From assembly GCF_902652985.1 (NCBI RefSeq), contig NC_047027.1:26660001-26724000 (forward strand): a stretch of DNA of 64,000 nucleotides, given 5' to 3'. This stretch comes from Pecten maximus. Lineage: Eukaryota. Shown here in pieces: positions 24,777-63,521 of the stretch. The notes under the pieces are model-generated. The model ran no database searches and was not told where the DNA came from. It saw only the letters and a list, made by a program, of their open reading frames with translations. Every line of letters begins with the position of its first letter. The first letter of the stretch is position 1. A program made the translations under genes and the position numbers.

Positions 24777-26021
24777 TCATTGTCCAAAACTACAGTTAAA
24801 TATGTCTCGCCGTGCACCACCATCACGTGCATGGTTCCTCCTCGGCCTTTTCCTCGCACTCCACCTATTCCTGGGGAAACGTGGACTGTGGGCTCTCTGT
24901 TCCACGTCCGAAACAACGGACATATTAGGTCTTATAGTAGACTTGTTATATCTCCGTAGTTCTCTCTCATGAATTCGTATGCATTCCTCGTGCATAGCGT
25001 TGGTAACCGCCTCGGTTATACTTCTAGGTTTGGTTCTCCTAACCGCTAAGCGAAACTCTACAGACTCACTACATTTATCTAGAAAAGCCTGGAGTGTATG
25101 TTCTTCCACCAGATCAGGTTTGTCCCGATAGGCTCGCCGGTATAAATCTTCCAGGGCTTGGCCAAAATCTCGAAGTGATTCTCTCTTATTCCGGCGTCGT
25201 AGTTTGGCTTCAGCCACATACTTTTCTTTCATGGCTTTAAATCCAAATCTGTCATCCATTTTTTCCAACAAACGGTTATAGGTACGTTTGCATGACGGTT
25301 GGAGACCGTATACATATGATGCAGCCTGGCCACGTAACGTGCTCAATAACACACGCCTTTTCTGTTCCTCATTCCACATACTCAGTTCGACCAGATTTTC
25401 AAAATATTCAAGGAATTCTGGCCATATATCTGTACTTTTTCCAGTAAAAGTTCTCCGTATTGGGTATTCATGATGCCAAGCTCTCTGGAACGGAAAGTTA
25501 CTGCATTGCGGGCATAGTTTTGCCTGGCGTCCATCAGCGTAAGGCACGTCATCAAGCCACTTCTCGTCTTCTGAATGATGACTGTCGTTATTAAACTCAT
25601 TGTTTTTTCTTGACAGTCCTCTAATTCTGACAATTAGCACGGCTATGATACACAACACCAGACATAAAAGCCCAATATGTCCTGCTTGCCTAGTACGTCG
25701 CTGCAGGGTGTCGAGATTGAACACAATGATACTGGATACATAATCGTAGCTCCAATACACCAAATGCACAGCTAGTCCAGATAGTAATACTATTAGGGAC
25801 AGTGTGCACATCACGAGCGAACAACAATCGTTTGTTGAGCGATCTCGACCGGACATGGTAACTTCTTTCAGTCCTTTATCATGACGGCTCCTATTCAGAG
25901 GAGTTCTAGCCGCCCGATACCTTCCAACTCTAGGTGTGCTGGTGTCACGTGGATAAAATGGCGATCCATCGAATTTTGAATCCGCCAAATGTTCGTTGAT
26001 GAGAGACTTGTCCTGCTCCAT
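24777..26021 (-). CDS. gag: Gag/capsid protein (414 aa from first ATG) with two N-terminal predicted transmembrane helices
   Basis: Ty3/gypsy capsid pattern TFTGKSTDIWPEFLEYFENLVELSMWNEEQKRRVLLSTLRGQA...LLEKMDDRFG...RRRNKRESLRDFGQALEDLYRRAY. ATG 30 nt after PBS. Hydrophobic segments SLVMCTLSLIVLLSGLAVHLVYW and AGHIGLLCLVLCIIAVLIV. Confidence 0.85.
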   Translation of the reverse strand: MEQDKSLINEHLADSKFDGSPFYPRDTSTPRVGRYRAARTPLNRSRHDKGLKEVTMSGRDRSTNDCCSLVMCTLSLIVLLSGLAVHLVYWSYDYVSSIIVFNLDTLQRRTRQAGHIGLLCLVLCIIAVLIVRIRGLSRKNNEFNNDSHHSEDEKWLDDVPYADGRQAKLCPQCSNFPFQRAWHHEYPIRRTFTGKSTDIWPEFLEYFENLVELSMWNEEQKRRVLLSTLRGQAASYVYGLQPSCKRTYNRLLEKMDDRFGFKAMKEKYVAEAKLRRRNKRESLRDFGQALEDLYRRAYRDKPDLVEEHTLQAFLDKCSESVEFRLAVRRTKPRSITEAVTNAMHEECIRIHERELRRYNKSTIRPNMSVVSDVEQRAHSPRFPRNRWSARKRPRRNHARDGGARRDIFNCSFGQ

Positions 26022-38350: not shown

Positions 38351-38454
38351 AATTCATCTTTAAGTACAACTAACAAACGATCAGTGTGATGGAACTAAAA
38401 CAGATTCATGAAGAAACATGATTTGTAAAATTGGTGTATTATTGATTCTTGTAG

Positions 38455-39980
38455 GTCTGACGTTATATGCCAAGTCCCAGATAGACGCCCAGCTAGCTTC
38501 ATCATCTGAGGAGCGTGAGGCAGGGTCTCTTGTTTCTGGCCTACCCACCTACACTCTTGAAGATGTTGGCAAGCATAAGACAAAGGACACCAGGATCTGG
38601 ATGACCTACAAAAATGGAGTTTATGATGTTACAGAATTTGTGGCAAACCACCCTGGTGGGAGTAAGATCCTGCTGGCAGCCGGTGGGGCCATGGACCCGT
38701 TCTGGAACATGTATGCAGTGCACAAGAACAAAGAAGTATTTTCAATGCTTGAAGAACTTCGTATAGGAAACATCACTGAAATTCCAAAAGAGGAGGAACG
38801 GGATGCAAGCAATCCATATGCTAATGATCCAAAACGACACCCTGCCTTACGGCCAAGTTCCTCAACTCCTTTTAATGCTGAGCCTCCTCTTCAGCTCCTC
38901 CCAGACAATTTTCTTACACCTAATGACCTCTTCTTTGTACGTAATCACCTTCCAGTTCCAGATGTAGATCCAAAGACATACAAGTTAGAAGTTGGAATTG
39001 ACGGAGCCTCTCGAAAGAAGAATATAAATCTCAATGATCTAAAGAATCGATTTCAGAAGAAGTCTGTGGCCTCCATTGTGCAATGTGCTGGTAATCGTCG
39101 TAGTGAAATGGTGAAGATCAAATCAGTTAAGGGACTAAACTGGGGCGCAGCTGCCATAAGTAATGCAGAATGGGCTGGAGTATGTCTCGATGATGTCCTG
39201 AAGTATTCTGGGATTGATATAGACACTGTCGATTGTGATCACATTATTTTTGACGGCTTGGATCAAGACCCAACAGGTTCAACCTATGGAGCGTCTATCC
39301 CGATTGAACTAGCTCGTCGTCTGAAGAAGGACATAATTGTAGCATACGAAATGAATGGAGAAGATATTCCTCGGGACCATGGCTACCCAGTACGAATCGT
39401 TCTTCCTGGAATTGTTGGAGCGAGACAGGTAAAATGGTTGTGCAAAATAACACTGTCAAAAAAGGAGAGTGATTGCCATTGGCAACAGAAGGATTACAAA
39501 GGGTTCCACGCGTCAATCGACTGGCATAATGTTGATTTCAGTACAGTGCCAGCCATTCAGGAACTTCCTGTCAACAGCGCCATCTGTGAGCCAGTTAATG
39601 GATCGAGTCTAGAAGAAGGTTCAACTGATGTGACAGTCAAAGGCTATGCGTGGAGCGGAGGTGGTCGTGGCATCGTCAGAGTCGACGTGACAACAGACGG
39701 GGGAAAGACATGGCATTCTGCAGAACTAAAACACCCAGACCAGCCATTATACAAGACATATGCATGGACACTATGGGAAGCGACAGTCCCACTGCCTGCA
39801 GACAAGAAGGATGTTGAGATTCAATGCAAGGCTGTTGACTCTTCCTATAATGTACAGCCAGATAACGTCGATGGAATCTGGAATCTAAGGGGTGTTCTTA
39901 GTAATGCTTGGTTCAAGGTCAACGTTCAAGTCCCAGGAGAGAAGGAAGAGGCAAAAAAGAAAAAGACATCTTGGTGGTAA
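38455..39980 (+). CDS. SUOX: Sulfite oxidase, main exon (cytochrome b5 haem + Mo-cofactor + dimerisation domains); full protein 581 aa
   Basis: GVYDVTEFVANHPGG (b5); FNAEPP..FFVRNHLPVP; QCAGNRR (Mo-ligating Cys); DHGYPVR; VKGYAWSGGGRGIVRVDV; IWNLRGVLSNAW. Acceptor TTCTTGTAG ending 38454. Confidence 0.97.
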
Positions 39981-40740: not shown

Positions 40741-40869
40741 TAAACATGTGACACCATATACACGTTGAATGTTACACTTGAATCTCTCATACAGAATAGA
40801 TCATCCTTAAAATGGAAACTAACAAAACCAAAACAAAATCAAACTCTCCACTTGATGCTGCAGTCTCCC

Positions 40870-42962
40870 AAAATACACACGTACTCACCACACACATCTC
40901 TCATACAGGGTCTGCCATCTTAAATACACACGTACTCACCACACACATCTCTCATACAGGGTCTGCCATCTTAAATACACACGTACTCACCACACACATA
41001 TCACATACAGGGTCTGCCATCTTAAATACACACGTACTCACCACACACATCTCTCATACAGGGTCTGCCATCTTAAATACACACGTACTCACCACACACA
41101 TCTCTCATACAGGGTCTGCCATCTTAAATACACATGTACTCACCACACACATATCACATACAGGGTCTGCCATCTTAAATACACACGTACTCACCACACA
41201 CATATCACATACAGGGTCTGCCATCTTAAATACACACGTACTCACCACACACATCTCTCATACAGGGTTTGCCATCTTAAATACACACGTACTCACCACA
41301 CACATCTCTCATACAGGGTCTGCCATCTTAAATACACACGTACTCACCACACACATCTCTCATACAGGGTCTGCCATCTTAAATACACACGTACTCACCA
41401 CACACATATCACATACAGGGTCTGCCATCTTAAATACACACTCACCACACACATCTCTCATACAGGGTCTGCCATCTTAAATACACACGTACTCACCACA
41501 CACATCTCTCATACAGGGTCTGCCATCTTAAATACACACGTACTCACCACACACATATCACATACAGGGTCTGCCATCTTAAATACACACGTACTCACCA
41601 CACACATATCACATACAGGGTCTGCCATCTTAAATACACATGTACTCACCACACACATATCACATACAGGGTCTGCCATCTTAAATACACACGTACTCGC
41701 CACACACATCTCTCATACAGGGTCTGCCATCTTAAATACACACATACTCGCCACACACATCTCTCATACAGGGTCTGCCATCTTAAATACACACGTACTC
41801 ACCACACACATCTCTCATACAGGGTCTGCCATCTTAAATACACACGTACTCACCACACACATCTCTCATACAGGGTCTGCCATCTTAAATACACACGTAC
41901 TCACCACACACATATCACATACAGGGTCTGCCATCTTAAATACACACGTACTCATCACACACATCTCATACAGGGTCTGCCATCTTAAATACACAGGTAC
42001 TCACCACACACATCTCTCATACAGGGTCTGACATCTTAAATACACACGTACTCACCACACACATCTCTCATACAGGGTCTGCCATCTTAAATACACACGT
42101 ACTCACCACACACATCTCTCATACAGGGTCTAGCTGCCATCTTAAATACACACGTACTCACCACACACATCTCTCATACAGGGTCTAGCTGCCATCTTAA
42201 ATACACACGTACTCACCACACACATCTCTCATACAGGGTCTGCCATCTTAAATACACACGTACTCACCACACCCATATCACATACAGGGTCTGCCATCTT
42301 AAATACACACGTACTCACCACACACATCTCTCATACAGGGTCTGCCATCTTAAATACACACGTACTCACCACACACATCTCTCATACAGGGTCTGCCATC
42401 TTAAATACACACGTACTCACCACACACATCTCTCATACAGGGTCTGCCATCTTAAATACACACGTACTCACCACACACATCTCTCAAAAAGGGTCTGCCA
42501 TCTTAAATACACACGTTCTCACCACACACATCTCTCATACAGGGTCTGCCATCTTAAATACACACGTACTCACCACACACATCTCTCATACAGGGTCTGC
42601 CATCTTAAATACACACGTACTCACCACACACATATCACATACAGGGTCTGCCATCTTAAATACACACGTACTCACCACACACATATCACATACAGGGTCT
42701 GCCATCTTAAATACACACGTTCTCACCACACACATCTCTCATACAGGGTCTGCCATCTTAAATACACACTCACCACACACATCTCTCATACAGGGTCTGC
42801 CATCTTAAATACACACGTACTCACCACACACATCTCTCATACAGGGTCTGCCATCTTAAATACACACATTCTCACCACACACATCTCTCATACAGGGTCT
42901 AGCTGCCATCTTAAATACAAACGTACTCACCACACACATCTCTCATACAGGGTCTGCCATCT
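40870..42962. repeat. 51-bp minisatellite, ~41 units
   Basis: TACACACGTACTCACCACACACATCTCTCATACAGGGTCTGCCATCTTAAA, highly homogeneous. Confidence 0.97.
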
Positions 42963-51747: not shown

Positions 51748-51807
51748 GTAAGTACACAAGGGGTGGTCGTTCTTCAGAGTGGTCGTAAACACAGGGACTT
51801 GAGAATT

Positions 51808-51864
51808 AGTTACAGTCTACATGTATTTGGTGCTCTCCCTAGTGTGCGTATAACATTTTGAGAC

Positions 51865-51896
<32 letters not shown>

Positions 51897-52028
51897 GGGG
51901 CTAGATTAAACCCCCCCCCCCCCCCCCCCCCTCCTCCAAAAAAAAAAAACAACAACAAAAAAACAACAAAAAAACGTCTCAAAATGTGCTATACACACTA
52001 GGATATCAAAATACATGTAGACTGTAAC
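51808..52028. repeat. ~220-bp foldback with poly-G/poly-C inner stem
   Basis: GTTACAGTCTACATGTATTT..CATTTTGAGACGT(n)G(n) - CTAGATTAAA - C(n)..A(n)CGTCTCAAAATG..AAATACATGTAGACTGTAAC. Confidence 0.8.
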
Positions 52029-52954
52029 AAATTATCCCCTGTGGTCGTAAATATAGGGGCAACTGTACCAAACAATGCTTGATGTATTGTAACAGACGTA
52101 CGAACTTTAGCTATAGACCACGATGTTATATCTCGACAATTACAGTAATTGTGTTTAGTAGTTTATTGACTTTTCGGTTGGTCATCATAAACATGTACAT
52201 CACATAATACAATCGAAATTGGGTTGGGGATTCGCGGTATTACAGACATATCGTAGAGGATGGGCAATTTGGAAAAAAATATCTTAACTTACTGTAGCAG
52301 CAATCCGAAATTTAGATTATTTTTTTTTAATATCTTATGTTTAATTGTAATTTGACTACCTAGATGGTCGTATTTTATAATATTTACATTTTTGTATACA
52401 TTTAAAGAACCCCGCTCTCATTGTAAAATGGACAAACAAAAATGAAATGTAATTCGTCTTGGGAGCATAGGATCTTGGAAGTTAAAGGGAAGTAGGCCTA
52501 ATGGGGGACAAAATAAGATCCACCAACTAGTTACTATTTAAGTAAATTTAATGGAATGTTAAGTTAAATATAATTTGTTTTAAAGAGCTCTTCTTTCAAT
52601 TCCTTAATACTTATTCTAACTGAAGGGACGCATTCGTTCTCTCTCGTCTTTGGGTTTTGCCATGTATGTCGATTTAACTGTATACATCAAAATCGTGTGT
52701 ACCTTTATACTTTGTTTGGCCCTTGATTAGGCTAGGGTGCCATTCTTACGTCATCATTTATCATTTAGTCTTAGAACTGTATACAGAATCTTCATTAGTC
52801 GAAAAAATCCATGTATCCAAGTATTTTGACGGGCTTTACTAGTTTTTTTCTGGATTATTCGAACATGTTGATATCTATTTGTGTAATAGTGAGTTTACAC
52901 ATATCAGATACATATGAAATTCAGTCATCTTGTGTTATGTCTAGTGTACAAGTG

Positions 52955-53235
52955 TATTTGGTAACTCACACAGACTACGTAAGTTTATTTTGTAACTCAC
53001 ACAGACTACGTAAGATTATTTGGTAACTCACACAGACTACGTAAGATTATTTGGTAACTCACCTAGACTACGTAAGATTATTTGGTAACTCACACAGACT
53101 ACGTAAGATTATTTGGTAACTCACCTAGACTACGTAAGATTATTTGGTAATTCACTTAGACTACGTTAGTTAAATTTTGTTACTCACATAAATTACGTAA
53201 GATTATTTGTTACTCATATAGACTACGTAAGGTCA
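52955..53235. repeat. 31-bp minisatellite (TTATTTGGTAACTCACACAGACTACGTAAGA), ~9 units
   Basis: Direct reading. Confidence 0.9.
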
Positions 53236-54090
53236 GTTGGAATTCACATCAACTCCGTAAGGTCACTTAGTAGCCAGGCTATCTATAGACATCATAGACA
53301 ATAGCCCATGTTCACTTACGCGTCTGGTAGCCATCTGGTTACAAAATGATATGATGGTCGTTACATTAGTCTAGAACTGTACGGTTTACTGTTCTCTACA
53401 ACCTTCGAAATACATCCGTTTTCGCATGACGTTTGTTTTTACGAGAAAATCAAATCCACAAACAGTTTGAAAGCATTGTTTTATTGCCGACGTCAAGCAT
53501 CATCTATTAGTAAGACGTGATAGGTGTTCGGTGATACACCAGACAGTTCTAGCGTCTCCCTCCTCTCTCCTTCAACAAAGTCTTCGACCACGAAGACACC
53601 CACTGGACGCTATGCAAGCTCCGTGGGTATTTAGTTATGCGTCAAATATAAGAGGGAAGGGAAAATGCAGCGACCAGACTGGGATTCGAACCCGCGTCCT
53701 CCAAACTCAAGACAGATCTCCAGCGGAGTTTTAAATGTATACAATTGTACGCGTAAACTTTATTTGAAACATATCAAGATATCTGAATGCGGACTAAATA
53801 ACTCGATTTAAATAGACTATGACAGGAAATAAATTTCCTCTATATACGCATCTAACATCTTTTGTTGAATATTGCTATAGATGTTTTGCTATATTTAATC
53901 ATGCATGCGAACAAAATATAGACATGTTCTTTAGAAATAGAGGATTTAAGTTAAAAATTAAGAAAAAACTAAATTCAAAAAATAAAAATGATCACTTATC
54001 ATTTATTATAAATTTATTATGATAACACGATGTTCATGCGATCATAAATTTACAATTATTTTTTGTACGTCACACAATAAATATTTCCAG

Positions 54091-54142: not shown

Positions 54143-54322
54143 TATATCGGGTATAATCGGGTATAATCGGGTTTAATCGGGTATAATCGGGAATAATCGG
54201 GTTAAATCGGGTATAATCGGGTATAATCGGGTTTAATCGGGTTTAATCGGGTATAATCGGGAATAATCGGGTATAATCGGGTTAAATCGGGTATAATCGG
54301 GTATAATCGGGTAAACTCGGTT
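54143..54322. repeat. 10-bp tandem repeat (GTATAATCGG)n, ~18 units
   Basis: Direct reading; starts right after the exon-2 donor. Confidence 0.95.
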
Positions 54323-54641
54323 TTAATAGCTCACTAGAGCTAATGTTCATTTGTTATCATATGTACATGTACCGACTTTAAAAAATGAATTTAATTGAAT
54401 AAAGACCTGAAGTGTTCTCTTTTTTCCAATCGGAAAACCACTCGGGCCTTTTCGTCATATCTTCTGAAACGTGTCAATGTAACGGTAACCATGGTTTCTG
54501 CCATCTTCTATTAGACTACGTTTTAGCTCAACAATCTAAAGTTTATTTTTCTAACCTATTTTGCATTCAAAATTTAGATATTTGTTGATATATTTTTGAT
54601 TCGTGTAATTGATCAAGTGTTTATCATTTGCATTATTTCAG

Positions 54642-55394: not shown

Positions 55395-58300
55395 TGTAGG
55401 CGTCGAATACGCCTCGAAATCGTTCCGGCTATCGTAATAATAAATGAGGTCAATTCCATCTTCCTGGCTTCATCTGTGTTTATTATCTTTGACATCAATT
55501 CAACTACATACATGTACAGTACAGGTGTAGTGACTCAATGATAGTTCTACGTAGATAGATTGACTGTAACGAAAAGAAACAGTACTTATTAGACTAATTA
55601 ACTAAGCAACAGTTACTATTATGCCTTATCATCTATAACACATGACGAGTTTGATCTGTAGATGAGATCGAGACAACTCGCCCTCTACTATTCAGTATAC
55701 AATACACATGACTTGACAAGACTAGGACATTTCGGCCCAGAATGAATTTAACCGAACCTGATAAATATAGCAAAATACAATACTATTACGATACTATTAC
55801 TCTTACACATTTATAGCGAGTTAAACAGCAATGAAACAGCAATGTATCAATCATATCATAGCATACAAATACAGCAGAAATCAAGTGATAGACTAGAATG
55901 CACGAGGGACTTGTCGTCTGTCCACGGTTCACTGACATATTTATATATTGGCCGAATTATCCAAAATGACATTATAACATGATGACATGGATTCCTAAAC
56001 AAGCATAAATCATATTCAAATCATTCAACAGTAATTAGTTACCGTATCGTATCCTACGATAGTCCGAACGAATCTTCTCATACTCAAAACATGTGCTGCG
56101 CTTGGATAACGCTATCCCATAATATTCGTCTATACTAAAACCGGAAACCGGATAACCGTATTTTCCGGAATCTTAACAAAATTACCACAAATGAAACTAA
56201 ACAATAAATTCAACATAAAACTAACATTTAGGCCGTAACATACCGGCCCCTTAATCGAGGCTTCAACCGAGATTATCAATTCGCAAAAACGGCCTAATAA
56301 CCATCAAACACATCAATTAAATCATTATGCTTAATCATAAAATAATTACAATTACAAAAGTACATCTGACATTTCAGTTCGAAATGTCCTTTCACTCAAG
56401 CGTTCACCGTATCCATTACTCAATGTCTGACTCGAGCAAGAGCACGAGTTTGGTCACTGGGCGCGTTAACACATTGGAAGGGGTCTTAACCTTCACGAAT
56501 CGCACAATGTCATGTTTGTCTTTCACAACTTCCTGAATCCTACCGGTTATCCACGCATGCCTAGGTGTACTATCAGCGATCAGCACAAGATCTCCAGTCT
56601 GCAAATTGCGTCGTTTCTTCATCCATTTCTGGCGTCCTTGCAGAAGCGGTAAGTATTCCTTGGTCCACCTATTCCAGAAAATATCTGAAAGGTACTGTAT
56701 CTGTCTCCACCTCCTTCTGGCATAGTTATCCGTGGCGACAAATGTTCCAGGTGGGAAATACTCTCCAGGCTGAAGCAATAGCAGATGGTTTGGGGTCAAA
56801 ACCCGTAGGTCAGTTACGTTATCCGATGCTTCAGTTAACGGGCGTCCATTTAAGATAGCCTCTACCTCACAAAAGACTGTCTGAAGTCCTTCGTCATCCA
56901 GTTTCGCATTCTGCTCATGCATAACAGAGTACAACACCTGTCTCACAGACCTAATGAGTCTTTCCCAGACTCCGCCGAAGTGAGAACCGGAGGGAGGATT
57001 GAATTCCCACTGAATGCTACTCTGCAACATGTTATCACGAATTTTGTCTGTGTTCCATTTCTGAATATTTTCCTTCATTTCTCGTTGAGCACCGATAAGG
57101 TTGGTTCCGTTATCCGATCTAATAAATACAGGTTTTCCTCTGCGAGCGATAAATCGTCGAATGGAGTTGATGCAAGAATCTGTATCGAGCGACGCAGCAA
57201 CTTCTAAATGGACCGCACGAGTCACAAGACAGGTAAACAATACCCCATATCGCTTTACCACACTCCTTCCACGTTTCAGTTCAAAGGGTCCGAAGAAGTC
57301 CATCCCAGTTCTGCTGAAAGGAGGCTGATCAGCTGCGAGTCGCTCTGCGGGTAAGTTTGCCATCTTTTGCTCAACACATGGAGCTCTGTATTTCCTACAA
57401 GTCACACATTTGGAAAGAATAGATTTCACCAGAGTGCGAGCACCAACAATCCAATATTTTTCTCGAATGAATGCAAGAACAGTGTTCTTTCCTAAGTGAC
57501 CACATGATCTGTGGGCATCATCCACAACGAGTCTCGATACGACAGGTTCCCTAGGCAACACCACGGGGTGTTTTGCATCATACGAAATTTCAGCTCTTTC
57601 AAGACGACCTCCTACGCGAATGACACCATCTTTAACAAAGGGCTCCATCTTGAATAATTTCGAAGTCTTCTTGAGTTTTCGCGACTGAACACCATTGCCC
57701 TGATGAAGGATCCTGCTTTCGGCTGCGAAGTACTTTCGTTGCTCATACTTAATCAACGCGGCTTCAGCTCGTTCCAGAATATCCACAGACAGGCACGCTG
57801 TACGAAAGTTTTTCTTTCCTTTGAGAAGTCTATCCTGTCTCTCTTTCGACAATGTTAACTTTATTTTCTGGTCGCGTTTCACAGGATCAGATTCTGAACT
57901 GCTGATGTCCTGTTTTATCTGCCGGCTCCTCTCAACAGCTCCCTGCAGGTTGTCCATAGCTCTCATAAGCCATCCAGTAGCCCTCCTAAGCTTATTAAAG
58001 TTGGAGTAATAGTCGAAAAGATTTTCGACACCACTGTTTGTGTCTAAAACAACTGATGTAGCGCACGCAGTCGTCCTTATTTCAGGATCATTCTCTTTAT
58101 CCGTGATCTTAACATCCTTTTCCACAACGGGCCATTCACGTTCGGATTTCCAGAGGAACATTGGTCCACGAGTCCACGAGTCAGGCAACTTCGAAATGCT
58201 CGTTCCTCTTGATGCAACATCAGCTGGATTCTCCTTAGTGTTGATGTAATACCAGTCATCTTCCGACGTAGCTTCGTGGATAAGAGCAATGCGGTTAGCT

Positions 58301-61300
58301 ACGAACGTGTGGAAGCGCAAATTCTTGTTTGCGATATACCTTAAGACTGAAGTGCTGTCGGTCCAAAAGAAGAATCGATCTATGTTGTAATTCAGCTGTT
58401 CTGTCACCATCCTGACCAACTTCACTAGAGAAGAGGCAGCTGTAAGTTCCATCCGGGGTATAGTCACTGCCTTCAGTGGTGCGACTCTCGCCTTCCCGAA
58501 CAAGAACGAGCAGTGGATCTTTCCAGTGACATCAACGAGTCGAAGATAGAATACCATTCCATATCCAATGTCACTTGCATCTGCGAAACCATGAAGTTGA
58601 CAGGAGGTTACCTTGCCGAGGTTTTTCCCTTTGTAACACCGATCAATGGTAACATGCTCTAGTTCAGGTAGCTGAAGCAGCCAATCGGTCCAGTCCTTCA
58701 GATCTTTTCCTGTGATCTCCTCATCCCATCCCTTACCATCCCCACAAAGTCTTTGCAGAATTGACTTGGCCTTAAGAACAAACGGGGATGCAATTCCTAA
58801 AGGATCGTACACTGAGCTGGTTACTGATAGAATACCTCTTCTAGTAACAGGCTTGTCTTTCATCTGAATTTGGAATCCAAGGGAGTCATTCTCCATGAAC
58901 CAATAAACTCCGAGAGCTCTTTCGATAGGTGGCTTACTATCCAGACTCCGCAACTTGACTTCTTGGGCACGATCACCCTCTGGAATAGATTCCACAACCA
59001 CATCACTGTTACTCGTCCATTTGGTAAGTCGGAATCCTCCGGATTTACACATTTGAGTCACATCATGTATAAGACTAATCGCCTTCTTCTCGGTAGCAAC
59101 GGAGGTCAGACAGTCATCGACATACATATTTCTTTTCAGTGTGTCCTGAACTTCTTGGGGAAACCGTTCTTGACTGTCCTCTGCAGTTTTCTGAAGAGCA
59201 AAGTTGCAAACACTGGGAGATGATGAGGCTCCAAACAGGTGAACCGTCATCCTGTAGCTCCTTGGCTCATTCGCAGTATTCCCGTTGGGCCACCAGTAAA
59301 ATCGCAGATAGTCTCTTTCATTTACTGGGACCTTCACCTGATAGAACATTGCTTCAATGTCTCCAATGACAGCCACTGGTTCCTCCCGGAATCGCATCAA
59401 CACACCAAGAAGATTGTTTGTAAGGTCAGGTCCCTGGAGTAAGTTGTCGTTAAGGGAGACACCTTGATATCGCGCAGAGCAATCAAACACCACTCGAATC
59501 TTGTTCTTTTTCTTGTGGTATACACCATGATGAGGAATGTACCAGACCTTTCCTTTGTCAAATCCCACAGGTGCTGGTTCCGCATGACCTTTCTCCAACA
59601 GTGTTTCCATGAAGGTAGTGTAATCTTCTTTGAACTTGGGATCTGCCTTGAACCTGTTCTCAATGCTGCGTAATCTCCGTTTAGCCATTACCGAGTTATC
59701 AGGCAAAATAGTGACCATGTTACGAAATGGCAACGAAACGCAGTAATGTTCTCCATCCTTATAAATAGAGTTTTCAGCCATATCCAAAAATTGTTTGTCC
59801 TCCCTCGAGTTTTCTTTTCTATCGTCAATAAGACGCTCAGGGAAATCGAGGTTCATAGATCTCTTAACCATGTCTTCGATGTCTTCTCCAGACTCATCCT
59901 GAATGTGAACTCTGTTGACTTGTATAGTACCGCTTTCTCGAAGAACATTCCAGACCACCCATCCAAGCTTAGTTCTTGTAGCATGTGGTGATCCACTAGG
60001 GCCTGCAAGTATCTCAATAGGCGAGTAGGCATCTGGTACGTTGCTGCCAATCATCAAACCTATCTCACAGTTAGGCTCAGCTAGTGAAACCTTTGCTAAG
60101 TGTTCCCACCTTGACACCTCTGCTTGTGTTGGGATGTGCTTCTTAGACACGGGCATTTTCTCCTTCGTGAACACTCGCGGAAGATCAATAGCATTTTCCG
60201 AGTCAATGTCACTTACTTGCAGTCCACTGATGGAAAATGTGTTCATGATAAATGGCTCACCCATTGTACTCAGTGTAAGCTGTGTCTTCTTACCTCTAGC
60301 TCCAAGCTGTTTCATAACTGTCTCGGTGCAAAACGAAGCGCTACTACCTGTATCCAAGAATGCGTATGTCTCTATACTATGTGGTTTATCACGCAAGCGA
60401 ATTCTAACTGGGACTATCGCCATGGCACAAGACAAATCCCCCTTTTGATCTTCTTTTGCGATAGCATAACCAGTACTGGCATTCGATACACTAACAACTG
60501 ACGAGCTTTCTTCGTTGTGTAAGATAGATGGATGACTTTTATTGCATATGCCGCACTTGGAACGATTACGGCATCTCTTCGACAAGTGGCCTTTCTTGAG
60601 ACAGCCAAAGCATAATCCCTTTTCTTTAATGAAGTTGACTCTTTCGTTCATAGGTTTGGCAGTTATCTTTTTGCAAGTATCCAGAGAATGGGAAGTAGAA
60701 TCACAGAAGAAACACCTATAATTCGGGGCTGGAGGAGGTACGGTGTCACTGGTGCTCTTAGGTATAGAATCTGTAACAATCTCTGGAACTGCATTGCTGG
60801 AACGTGCAATCTTTGTCTGAGTCTTTGGTCTTGAAGTCCCAGTGGCATTACTTCCATACGTAGGGTCGTTGACTTTCTTAGCCTCTGCCTTCACAAACTT
60901 CATGAAATCTTGGAACCGAACCTTCCTCTTTGCTTCCTTGTACTTGTATACTTGGTTCCTCCATTTATCATGCAGATAGAAGGGTAGTTTGAGCATTAAT
61001 TTCTTAATATTGTCCGAGTAGTCAAGAACGCCATTTGATTCTGTGCCAACTGCATTATCACACTCTACAAGAAACAAAGAGAAGTCATCGAGTGCCTTCG
61101 GGTCTCCAGGACGAATGGTGGGCCAGTCTAATGCTTTCTTGATGAAAGCTGTCGCTATAACTTCCTCATCGCCATAGCGATCCTCCAGCTGACTCATGGC
61201 TGCCTTATAAGCCTTGTCGCCGTTAAGATGGCTGAATCCTGACACCACTTTATGTGCATCTCCGAATGTAAGTTGTTCAAGGTAGTTCATCCTTTCATCG

Positions 61301-63279
61301 TCATCATCAGTGTTGATTACAACTTTCGAGTGAAATTGACGAATAAATCTGCGATATTCTAGAGGATCTCCACTAAACTTCTTTACCTCTGCCACAGGTT
61401 TTCTTAAATGTTGAACTACCGACTGAACTACGGTTTGTGAATGGGACGAATCAACATATTGTTCAGGTAGTGTTCTCGATGACACTTCTGCTACACCAGT
61501 CGTATGCGGTCTAGGTCTATCATATAGGACTGGAGGGGGACTTGCACAAACACTTTCATCTGTAAATCGTACAGGCAATGGTCGCGGCTTAGGGGAGGTA
61601 AATCGCGGTTGCTCGAACGCAAGAGCCTGGTCAACTGAAGCATTAAGATTTTCATTTGAGTCGTACTTGTCGAGTACTCCGCTTCTCGCTTGAGCGACAG
61701 CTATACCGGTATCAAGTTCCAGCTCTTCCTCTTTGAGCTTTAGCGACAACTTAGCTAACTCAATTTCATGTTTCTTTGATAACGCTAGTTTCCTTGTCTC
61801 TAATTCTACCCTAACCTGTTCTTCTTTGATACGTTTCAGAGACGCGTATGAACTGGCAGTACTGGAAACGGATACATTATCATCGGCTTCTGGATCAGTT
61901 TTCTTTATAATGCCTTGGTCTATTTTCTCGCCAGCCACACTCAACTCTTCGGCTACAGATAAAGTGTTCTTACTCAATGTCATAGCACTCCGCGAGGAAA
62001 TGTAGTTCTCAATCCAACTTTTGAATTCTTTCGCAGAACCATAATTCTCATTGAACCTTTGAGCAAACTCATCATGCTCATGGGAAGAGACTTGGGGCAG
62101 CAAAATGTCATACAGTTCCAAATATTTTTCGAACTCACTCATCCACATACTGTATTTTTTACGCACAATATCCAAAGGTTCGTCATCTTCAGTGGCTATT
62201 TCTTTTAAATATCTTTCTGACCTACATAGAGACTTGTATTTTTTGTCAAGCTGTTCCATATTGTACTGCATGCCTTTCTCACTAAATTTTCTGGCCCGTC
62301 CAGAATCTGAATTTAAGTCATACATGTAACCTTCTACAGCTTCTCTGTCTCTAGTAGCCATCTTGTTCCAGATCTGTATCACTTAAAAGCTTGAAGATCA
62401 TACCTCTTACATCTAGGAAGATACGTCAATGAATGTAGGCGTCGAATACGCCTCGAAATCGTTCCGGCTATCGTAATAATAAATGAGGTCAATTCCATCT
62501 TCCTGGCTTCATCTGTGTTTATTATCTTTGACATCAATTCAACTACATACATGTACAGTACAGGTGTAGTGACTCAATGATAGTTCTACGTAGATAGATT
62601 GACTGTAACGAAAAGAAACAGTACTTATTAGACTAATTAACTAAGCAACAGTTACTATTATGCCTTATCATCTATAACACATGACGAGTTTGATCTGTAG
62701 ATGAGATCGAGACAACTCGCCCTCTACTATTCAGTATACAATACACATGACTTGACAAGACTAGGACATTTCGGCCCAGAATGAATTTAACCGAACCTGA
62801 TAAATATAGCAAAATACAATACTATTACGATACTATTACTCTTACACATTTATAGCGAGTTAAACAGCAATGAAACAGCAATGTATCAATCATATCATAG
62901 CATACAAATACAGCAGAAATCAAGTGATAGACTAGAATGCACGAGGGACTTGTCGTCTGTCCACGGTTCACTGACATATTTATATATTGGCCGAATTATC
63001 CAAAATGACATTATAACATGATGACATGGATTCCTAAACAAGCATAAATCATATTCAAATCATTCAACAGTAATTAGTTACCGTATCGTATCCTACGATA
63101 GTCCGAACGAATCTTCTCATACTCAAAACATGTGCTGCGCTTGGATAACGCTATCCCATAATATTCGTCTATACTAAAACCGGAAACCGGATAACCGTAT
63201 TTTCCGGAATCTTAACAAAATTACCACAAATGAAACTAAACAATAAATTCAACATAAAACTAACATTTAGGCCGTAACA
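55395..63279 (-). mobile_element. Full-length, apparently intact BEL/Pao LTR retrotransposon (7885 bp)
   Basis: LTRs 55395-56240 and 62434-63279, both 846 bp, TG..CA, no differences seen by eye. TSD TGCAC (55390-94, 63280-84). PPT-like AGGGGCCGGTA at 56241-56251 (minus). Single uninterrupted ORF. Confidence 0.98.
56416..62361 (-). CDS. BEL/Pao Gag-Pol polyprotein (1981 aa from ATG)
   Basis: Gag KFSGDPLEY; three Cys/His knuckles (CFFC..H..C, CFGC..GH..C, CGIC..HP..LH); protease FLDTGS; RT DIEAMFYQV / YVDD; RNase H HGFADAS; integrase H..GH..CVTC, GMDFFGP, SDNGTN, GVWERLI. Confidence 0.97.
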   Translation of the reverse strand: MATRDREAVEGYMYDLNSDSGRARKFSEKGMQYNMEQLDKKYKSLCRSERYLKEIATEDDEPLDIVRKKYSMWMSEFEKYLELYDILLPQVSSHEHDEFAQRFNENYGSAKEFKSWIENYISSRSAMTLSKNTLSVAEELSVAGEKIDQGIIKKTDPEADDNVSVSSTASSYASLKRIKEEQVRVELETRKLALSKKHEIELAKLSLKLKEEELELDTGIAVAQARSGVLDKYDSNENLNASVDQALAFEQPRFTSPKPRPLPVRFTDESVCASPPPVLYDRPRPHTTGVAEVSSRTLPEQYVDSSHSQTVVQSVVQHLRKPVAEVKKFSGDPLEYRRFIRQFHSKVVINTDDDDERMNYLEQLTFGDAHKVVSGFSHLNGDKAYKAAMSQLEDRYGDEEVIATAFIKKALDWPTIRPGDPKALDDFSLFLVECDNAVGTESNGVLDYSDNIKKLMLKLPFYLHDKWRNQVYKYKEAKRKVRFQDFMKFVKAEAKKVNDPTYGSNATGTSRPKTQTKIARSSNAVPEIVTDSIPKSTSDTVPPPAPNYRCFFCDSTSHSLDTCKKITAKPMNERVNFIKEKGLCFGCLKKGHLSKRCRNRSKCGICNKSHPSILHNEESSSVVSVSNASTGYAIAKEDQKGDLSCAMAIVPVRIRLRDKPHSIETYAFLDTGSSASFCTETVMKQLGARGKKTQLTLSTMGEPFIMNTFSISGLQVSDIDSENAIDLPRVFTKEKMPVSKKHIPTQAEVSRWEHLAKVSLAEPNCEIGLMIGSNVPDAYSPIEILAGPSGSPHATRTKLGWVVWNVLRESGTIQVNRVHIQDESGEDIEDMVKRSMNLDFPERLIDDRKENSREDKQFLDMAENSIYKDGEHYCVSLPFRNMVTILPDNSVMAKRRLRSIENRFKADPKFKEDYTTFMETLLEKGHAEPAPVGFDKGKVWYIPHHGVYHKKKNKIRVVFDCSARYQGVSLNDNLLQGPDLTNNLLGVLMRFREEPVAVIGDIEAMFYQVKVPVNERDYLRFYWWPNGNTANEPRSYRMTVHLFGASSSPSVCNFALQKTAEDSQERFPQEVQDTLKRNMYVDDCLTSVATEKKAISLIHDVTQMCKSGGFRLTKWTSNSDVVVESIPEGDRAQEVKLRSLDSKPPIERALGVYWFMENDSLGFQIQMKDKPVTRRGILSVTSSVYDPLGIASPFVLKAKSILQRLCGDGKGWDEEITGKDLKDWTDWLLQLPELEHVTIDRCYKGKNLGKVTSCQLHGFADASDIGYGMVFYLRLVDVTGKIHCSFLFGKARVAPLKAVTIPRMELTAASSLVKLVRMVTEQLNYNIDRFFFWTDSTSVLRYIANKNLRFHTFVANRIALIHEATSEDDWYYINTKENPADVASRGTSISKLPDSWTRGPMFLWKSEREWPVVEKDVKITDKENDPEIRTTACATSVVLDTNSGVENLFDYYSNFNKLRRATGWLMRAMDNLQGAVERSRQIKQDISSSESDPVKRDQKIKLTLSKERQDRLLKGKKNFRTACLSVDILERAEAALIKYEQRKYFAAESRILHQGNGVQSRKLKKTSKLFKMEPFVKDGVIRVGGRLERAEISYDAKHPVVLPREPVVSRLVVDDAHRSCGHLGKNTVLAFIREKYWIVGARTLVKSILSKCVTCRKYRAPCVEQKMANLPAERLAADQPPFSRTGMDFFGPFELKRGRSVVKRYGVLFTCLVTRAVHLEVAASLDTDSCINSIRRFIARRGKPVFIRSDNGTNLIGAQREMKENIQKWNTDKIRDNMLQSSIQWEFNPPSGSHFGGVWERLIRSVRQVLYSVMHEQNAKLDDEGLQTVFCEVEAILNGRPLTEASDNVTDLRVLTPNHLLLLQPGEYFPPGTFVATDNYARRRWRQIQYLSDIFWNRWTKEYLPLLQGRQKWMKKRRNLQTGDLVLIADSTPRHAWITGRIQEVVKDKHDIVRFVKVKTPSNVLTRPVTKLVLLLESDIE

Positions 63280-63296
63280 TGCACTTTCTCTGACAG

Positions 63297-63521
63297 GTCT
63301 AAATATACCTTTGGACTACTGGGTAGGACTGGATCGACGGGTCAGTGATGATGTTTGGGTGTGGGTTTGGGGGACAGGACAGACCACATCTAATGACATC
63401 CCGTCCAGGTGTTTAGGGTACACAACGGATGGTCATCGTAATGCTATAGCGACCAGTGTTAACGAGCTACGTCAGAGAAGTGGCGAGAATAGCCAGTTTA
63501 ACTACGTCTGTGAACATGACG
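63297..63521 (+). CDS. C-type lectin domain, C-terminal half (exon 4); gene continues downstream
   Basis: YWVGL..WVW..G..C...YVCE. Acceptor TTTCTCTGACAG, donor G|GTACGT; phase 1 joins 54824. Confidence 0.82.

Follow-up and report, generated by a model that had tools for sequence, protein, structure and literature searches.

BEL/Pao retrotransposons comprise the clades BEL, Pao, Tas, Suzu, Sinbad, Dan, Flow, Sparrow and Surcouf, and their insect and nematode members use tRNA-Arg or tRNA-Gly sites. Self-priming is documented in other retrotransposons: in Tf1 the RNA's initial 11 bases pair with the primer-binding site (hereafter PBS), and cleavage by RNase H falls between bases 11 and 12 (available text of PMC7175516), and the same self-priming has been proposed for Tj1 (available text of PMC4600332). 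In plants, self-primers have been predicted for Tcn1 (gypsy) and for TAR, Houba and Osr-1 (copia) from at least 10 bp of LTR complementary to sequence lying 0–5 bp after the 5′ LTR (available text of PMC6317226). Self-priming has so far been described in gypsy chromoviruses and predicted in some copia elements, and the element considered here would extend it to BEL/Pao.

The window, the whole 64-kb stretch of Pecten maximus DNA that was analyzed, contains an intact BEL/Pao element on its minus strand (coordinates in descending order are read along the element). The 5′ LTR (62434–63279) and 3′ LTR (55395–56240, an offset of 7039) are each 846 nt, have TG...CA ends and are identical over all 846 nt, and the element is flanked by a 5-bp target-site duplication, GTGCA (63280–63284 on the 5′ side, 55394–55390 on the 3′ side). 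Between the LTRs lies a single gag-pol ORF (56416–62361) of 1981 residues with no internal stop, in which Pao peptidase A17, DUF1759, RVT_1 (RT), integrase zinc-binding and DUF5641 domains were identified (matches to PF05380 at 6e-46, PF18701, PF03564, PF00078 and PF17921). The features of BEL/Pao membership, a Pao-type protease/RT-RH/integrase polyprotein between TG...CA LTRs and a 5-bp duplication, are present. A polypurine-tract-like motif (PPT, 56241–56252) next to the 3′ LTR is common to many relatives. A preliminary description had noted that the element looks recently active; with identical LTRs and an intact ORF, the element is young.

Several other features of the window were noted. 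On the plus strand an uninterrupted 520-residue ORF (38418–39980), in which cytochrome b5, molybdopterin oxidoreductase and Mo-co dimer regions were recognized as domains, is a sulfite oxidase gene whose coding part is apparently intron-less. A 414-residue ORF on the minus strand (24777–26021), which is hydrophobic in its N-terminal part and gives weak gag-like matches (PNMA/DUF1759), is probably the remnant of another LTR element. Nested inverted repeats (arms of 28 and 39 nt) around G and C runs at 51801–52036 resemble a DNA element of the small, non-autonomous kind, 52919–53238 and 54146–54325 consist of tandem arrays whose units are 31 nt and 10 nt long, and a repeat array at 40812–41480 can be read as a 222-residue ORF.

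The 13 nt directly after the 5′ LTR (62433–62421) do not start with TGG, as the preliminary description had observed, and a TGG-initial leader, the mark of a tRNA-primed PBS, was found in none of the 25 curated LTR/leader sets described below. No tRNA genes were found within the 64-kb window, and an Rfam scan of 62200–63400 returned a single match at chance level (E 2.5).

The 5′ LTR does, however, contain a 479-nt GT-AG intron (63081–62603, minus strand) with the donor GTAACT and a pyrimidine-rich acceptor ending in CAG, and the 3′ LTR carries the same intron at 56042–55564. The intron was named as a candidate from the sequence before region 61800–63400 was compared with four of the 24 listed public runs (X1, X3, X4, and X10). 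The sole joint reported connects 62602 to 63082, skipping 479 nt with GT-AG on the element strand, and it was present in three of the four runs, which represent three separate studies and whose RNA status is presumed. Joint depth was 85.8 in X3, where the intron was without cover, 30.8 in X1 and 2.64 in X4, and all of the junction contigs carry at least 29 nt upstream of the donor. Having GT-AG ends, a pyrimidine tract and exact removal in runs that are RNA by guess, this is a spliceosomal intron. Of the four, X10 alone is recorded as RNA, and its contig, which stops at 62502, links an unspliced LTR to the PPT side. That contig end is a weak hint for the poly(A) site, and a depth step in X1 near 63157–63128 is likewise a weak hint only. 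The sole A[AT]TAAA of the LTR, an AATAAA at 62518–62523 (minus strand) and the probable poly(A) signal, is 79 nt into exon 2; the poly(A) signal lies 3′ of the proposed primer in 20 of the 25 curated sets, so that the repeat needed for strand transfer sits in exon 2. An alternative splice from donor 62971 to acceptor 62513, which gives a 9-nt match and would mend the LTR segment singled out in the preliminary description (see below), was also considered and rejected, as no such joint was reported in the four runs. Runs X1 and X4 additionally contain loose ends at the 3′ end of the LTR (62430–62434) with three different flanks, which show further insertions of the element family in other individuals.

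Joining of the two exons creates the exact reverse complement of the sequence at the PBS position. The last six nucleotides of LTR exon 1 (63087–63082) and the first five of exon 2 (62602–62598) form 11 of 11 Watson-Crick pairs, without wobble, with a PBS core, ATTGACGTATC, located 3 nt past the LTR end (62430–62420), whereas the unspliced LTR offers that position at most six consecutive Watson-Crick pairs. A perfect complement of about 11 nt in the element's own LTR RNA, as in Tf1-type priming, is therefore present only after splicing. No other of the LTR's 1723 GT-AG pairs yields as long a PBS match as the observed intron; when the junction was fixed by the reads none of 20,000 shuffled leaders reached 11 nt, and when all 1723 pairs were left free 4 of 60 did. 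Past a small internal loop, leader bases 62411–62418 can extend the duplex into exon 1 (about 63091–63099), giving an energy of −23.3 kcal/mol for 25 nt. No sequence changes were listed at the junction or in 62430–62420, which two contigs cover. We propose that 63082–63087 and 62598–62602 are the 5′ and 3′ halves of a self-primer that would be cleaved after 62598, by analogy with Tf1. In folding of the window element the junction helix reached a probability of 0.93 only with an RNA start at 63087, and 0–0.24 with upstream starts. A U5 stem-loop beside the PBS is reportedly a requirement of Tf1-type self-priming; the window element has a 6-bp hairpin at the U5 end (62437–62453, minus strand, z −1.9), and such a hairpin is not general, as z values of −1.5 or lower were obtained in only 5 of the 25 curated sets.

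Relatives were collected with a profile of 30 polyproteins, which identified 79 loci in metagenome contigs, and viral contigs yielded none; 22 of the 79 had too little 5′ sequence and the other 57 were scanned with loose filters, at the cost of comparatively weak per-locus nulls (0–6 of 40 for kept matches of 10–13 nt). Curation produced 25 LTR/leader sets, the window element and 24 relatives, with RT identities of 44–84% (median 54%). The own-LTR Watson-Crick core is 11 nt long in 16 sets, 12 nt in four, 13 nt in two, 10 nt in two and 9 nt in one (L055). It is split by an intron in 16 sets and contiguous in nine, and intron length ranges from 77 to 479 nt in the 15 sets holding the intron in one piece. 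The core begins 0–4 nt from the LTR end and is represented by 22 distinct 9-mers, and foreign leaders reached 10 nt in only 8 of 600 tests, all of them between families with the same PBS. The LTR ends of eight sets were fixed by the LTR pair, and all eight have cores of 11–13 nt, with L023 counted at one of two possible ends (5 nt at the CA end, 12 at the TA end); the other 17 ends, positioned with the match as a guide, are less independent. LTRs ending in TA rather than CA occur in L015, L023, L046, L051, and L073. Position 12 pairs in 6 of the 25 sets, about the chance level, indicating that the pairing unit is 11 nt. That the match changes in step with the LTR of each element supports priming by the element's own LTR RNA.

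Pairing that extends upstream of the core was enriched (11 of 25 sets in the top five ranks, p 0.006), which suggests that the RNA reaches upstream of the 11-mer and is not easily squared with transcription beginning exactly there. Of 19 relatives' sets that were folded, 18 gave a helix probability of at least 0.5 if the RNA began at the primer and 10 did so if it included 60 nt upstream, and no TATA box at a fixed distance was found in the relatives. Outside the 25 sets, L028 has a 13-nt split match with an AAG acceptor, and half-matches extend as far as the contig reaches on the donor side in L061 and L063 and on the acceptor side in L013 and L066, the L013 leader being shared by two further loci. 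Five near-copies of curated families (L002, L016, L022, L059, and L073) were not counted in the 25, three loci (L019, L020, and L036) were ambiguous, and 18 of the 57 had no LTR or no placeable LTR end; two of these 18, L021 and L025, possess long stretches on the LTR side and may represent failures. In an RT tree of 80 rows (midpoint root, read without branch support) the intron-less sets occur in several places. One relative, L017, has two GTAAGT donors (849 and 908), both upstream of a single acceptor, and only the second donor completes the PBS complement; alternative splicing could thereby switch the primer off.

We favor, with moderate confidence, the explanation that this BEL/Pao lineage is self-primed in the manner of Tf1 by a primer that host splicing assembles. 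Starting from the exact removal of the LTR intron and a junction complementary to a covarying PBS, the cycle would proceed as follows. Transcription would begin within the 5′ LTR, at 63087 or upstream of it, and the intron nearest the cap would be spliced. The junction would then anneal to the PBS and the RNA would be cleaved after 62598, the probable nuclease being RT's RNase H. The new 3′-OH would prime strong-stop DNA that spans the 3-nt spacer, U5 and, within exon 2, roughly 100 nt of R, and this DNA would transfer to an intron-retaining 3′ LTR, in which case progeny would inherit the intron. Such inheritance means that the 3′ LTR must often stay unspliced, and the unspliced LTR joined to the PPT side in X10 fits this step. 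Were a spliced 3′ LTR to serve as the template, intron-less LTRs would be produced that could still self-prime; the nine contiguous sets scattered on the tree, together with L027, fit intron loss by that path. In L027 the 5′ LTR (1–326) contains an intron acceptor and the 3′ LTR (6694–7103) is intron-less, the two being 88% alike. This contig may document intron loss in genomic DNA, or it may be a recombinant or an assembly chimera. Finally, plus-strand synthesis would recopy the 11-nt primer, keeping the PBS wobble-free and tied to the LTR.

It is feasible, though we regard it as unlikely, that the splice junction primes from a spliced 3′ LTR instead, either that of a co-packaged RNA or, through folding round of the molecule, that of the same RNA. 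In this case the transcription start may lie downstream of the donor, for instance at the TATATAAA box at 62986; the preliminary description had placed this box next to its proposed primer segment, and had missed the intron that encloses both. The best covered spliced contig, that of X3 (depth 85.8), continues into the PPT side, and PBS-side contigs in X3 have a depth of 7.4. As we count it, the sequence of at least 29 nt upstream of the donor in the junction contigs also speaks for this route. However, contigs merge identical LTRs, so the X3 link may reflect either 3′-LTR splicing or a merge in the graph and is not decisive. Furthermore, TATAWAW occurs in only 2 of 15 introns, the nine intron-less sets need no such route, and one spliced and one unspliced 3′ end would be required in every cycle.

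A second alternative is that the pairing of LTR and leader has a structural or regulatory role (in packaging or translation) and that a host RNA, such as a tRNA half, is the primer. Half-tRNA primers are known in copia lineages (available text of PMC6317226). Yet each of the 22 different cores follows its own LTR, and the helix starts within 0–4 nt of the LTR end, which is where priming has to take place, and stops abruptly at 11 bp. Host RNAs, being a fixed set, would not follow such a pattern, and we consider a host primer improbable.

Still less probable in our estimation is that the joint derives from intron-less genomic copies, which would be the active ones, with intron-bearing copies either primed by the RNA of these or dead ends. 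Intron-less LTR DNA does exist in a relative (the 3′ LTR of L027), and in both X3 and X4 the spliced contigs carry one haplotype, which is distinct from the window copy and absent from it. In X1, however, exon 2 is present only in that haplotype, beside both spliced and unspliced contigs, and the window copy, which bears the intron, has identical LTRs and an intact ORF. Sixteen divergent sets retain an intron with canonical signals at the same place, and intron-less copies would themselves imply splicing of the RNA.

The remaining alternative is that of the preliminary description, which proposed as primer a contiguous segment of the unspliced LTR, 62979–62967 (minus strand). Its pairing with 62433–62421 was correctly reported as 13 of 13 positions (11 Watson-Crick and two G-U pairs), at −15.0 kcal/mol, and dinucleotide-shuffled LTRs reached the same energy in only 7 of 1000 trials. 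For 11-, 15-, 18-, and 20-mers the counts were 21, 24, 61, and 161 of 1000, so the 13-mer exceeds chance only modestly, and by an amount that varies with the choice of length. When 25 leaders were compared against the intron interior, the window's own leader ranked first (2 of 200 shuffles), but in the 14 relatives the own leader ranked 2, 4, 6, and then 13–23, with a median of 16 over the 15 introns; most relatives thus retain no equivalent pairing within the intron. The helix has a folding probability of about 0.9 if the RNA began at 62985, a start that would fall inside the TATA box itself, and of 0.0 with starts at 63110 or upstream. In addition, the segment lies within the spliced intron, its two G-U pairs differ from the Watson-Crick cores of the relatives (which core selection imposes), and natural variants at 62971 (X10) and 62433, each in a single contig, break pairs of the helix. 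We consider this segment the least credible primer of all, its pairing being probably incidental though itself a 1-in-100 event in the window element. The broader claim of the preliminary description, that an element lacking a tRNA PBS is primed by RNA of its own LTR, is supported by the covariation; its choice of partner is probably mistaken.

If self-priming by spliced RNA is correct, its scope may be wider than this element. We judge the chances to be even that in a broad BEL/Pao lineage the host spliceosome performs an obligatory primer-making step, in which one intron present in both LTRs is removed from the 5′ copy, where it builds the primer, and kept in the 3′ copy, where it ensures inheritance; splicing that depends on position would then act as a gate on replication, and every 3′-end slip would found an intron-less, Tf1-like family. 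This would represent a natural case of one intron needing different treatment at the two ends of one RNA, and would make host splicing a possible control point of retrotransposition. A primer absent from the DNA would also explain why such elements look PBS-less in standard searches, and it suggests a rule for annotation, to seek an 11-nt PBS complement across LTR splice junctions.

With regard to known systems, the window element shares with the BEL/Pao superfamily its 5-bp target-site duplication and its single gag-pol ORF, in which Pao peptidase A17, DUF1759 and DUF5641 are encoded. A term search for "primer" in the available text of two BEL/Pao surveys (PMC3118150 and PMC6238403) gave no match, and the available text of the Sinbad paper (PMC554778) uses the word for PCR alone. 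Neither self-priming nor an LTR intron in BEL/Pao is mentioned in the available portions of these three or of PMC3601003, PMC6934838, and PMC5445492, and no published account of a spliced BEL/Pao self-primer was found in the literature covered, outside which lie most subscription journals and the Repbase reports. The fungal GalEa copia elements (PMC5445492) and bivalve TRIMs (PMC6934838) resemble the window element in lacking a tRNA PBS, but the substitute proposed for them, in the text available, is a hairpin of the internal region rather than an LTR complement. The layout predicted for plant Tcn1 and TAR is, as far as the available text describes it, common to our nine intron-less sets (one with only 9 bp), whereas the search rule given there accepts contiguous complements only and would miss a primer split by an intron.

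The closest likeness is to Tf1, Tf2 and Tj1 of the Tf1/sushi group (Ty3/gypsy chromoviruses), which likewise have no tRNA PBS and an 11-nt complement of the PBS in their own LTR. The window element differs from that group in its polyprotein, which by its domains is of BEL/Pao and not of gypsy chromovirus type, and from Tf1 in that the complement is split by a spliceosomal intron, as it also is in 15 other curated sets. In addition, the Tf1 complement constitutes the first 11 nt of the RNA, whereas for the window element folding favors such a start, at 63087, and the upstream extension of pairing that is frequent among the sets favors RNA reaching farther upstream. By analogy, the window element appears to work like Tf1 in its priming without being a member of the Tf1/sushi group.
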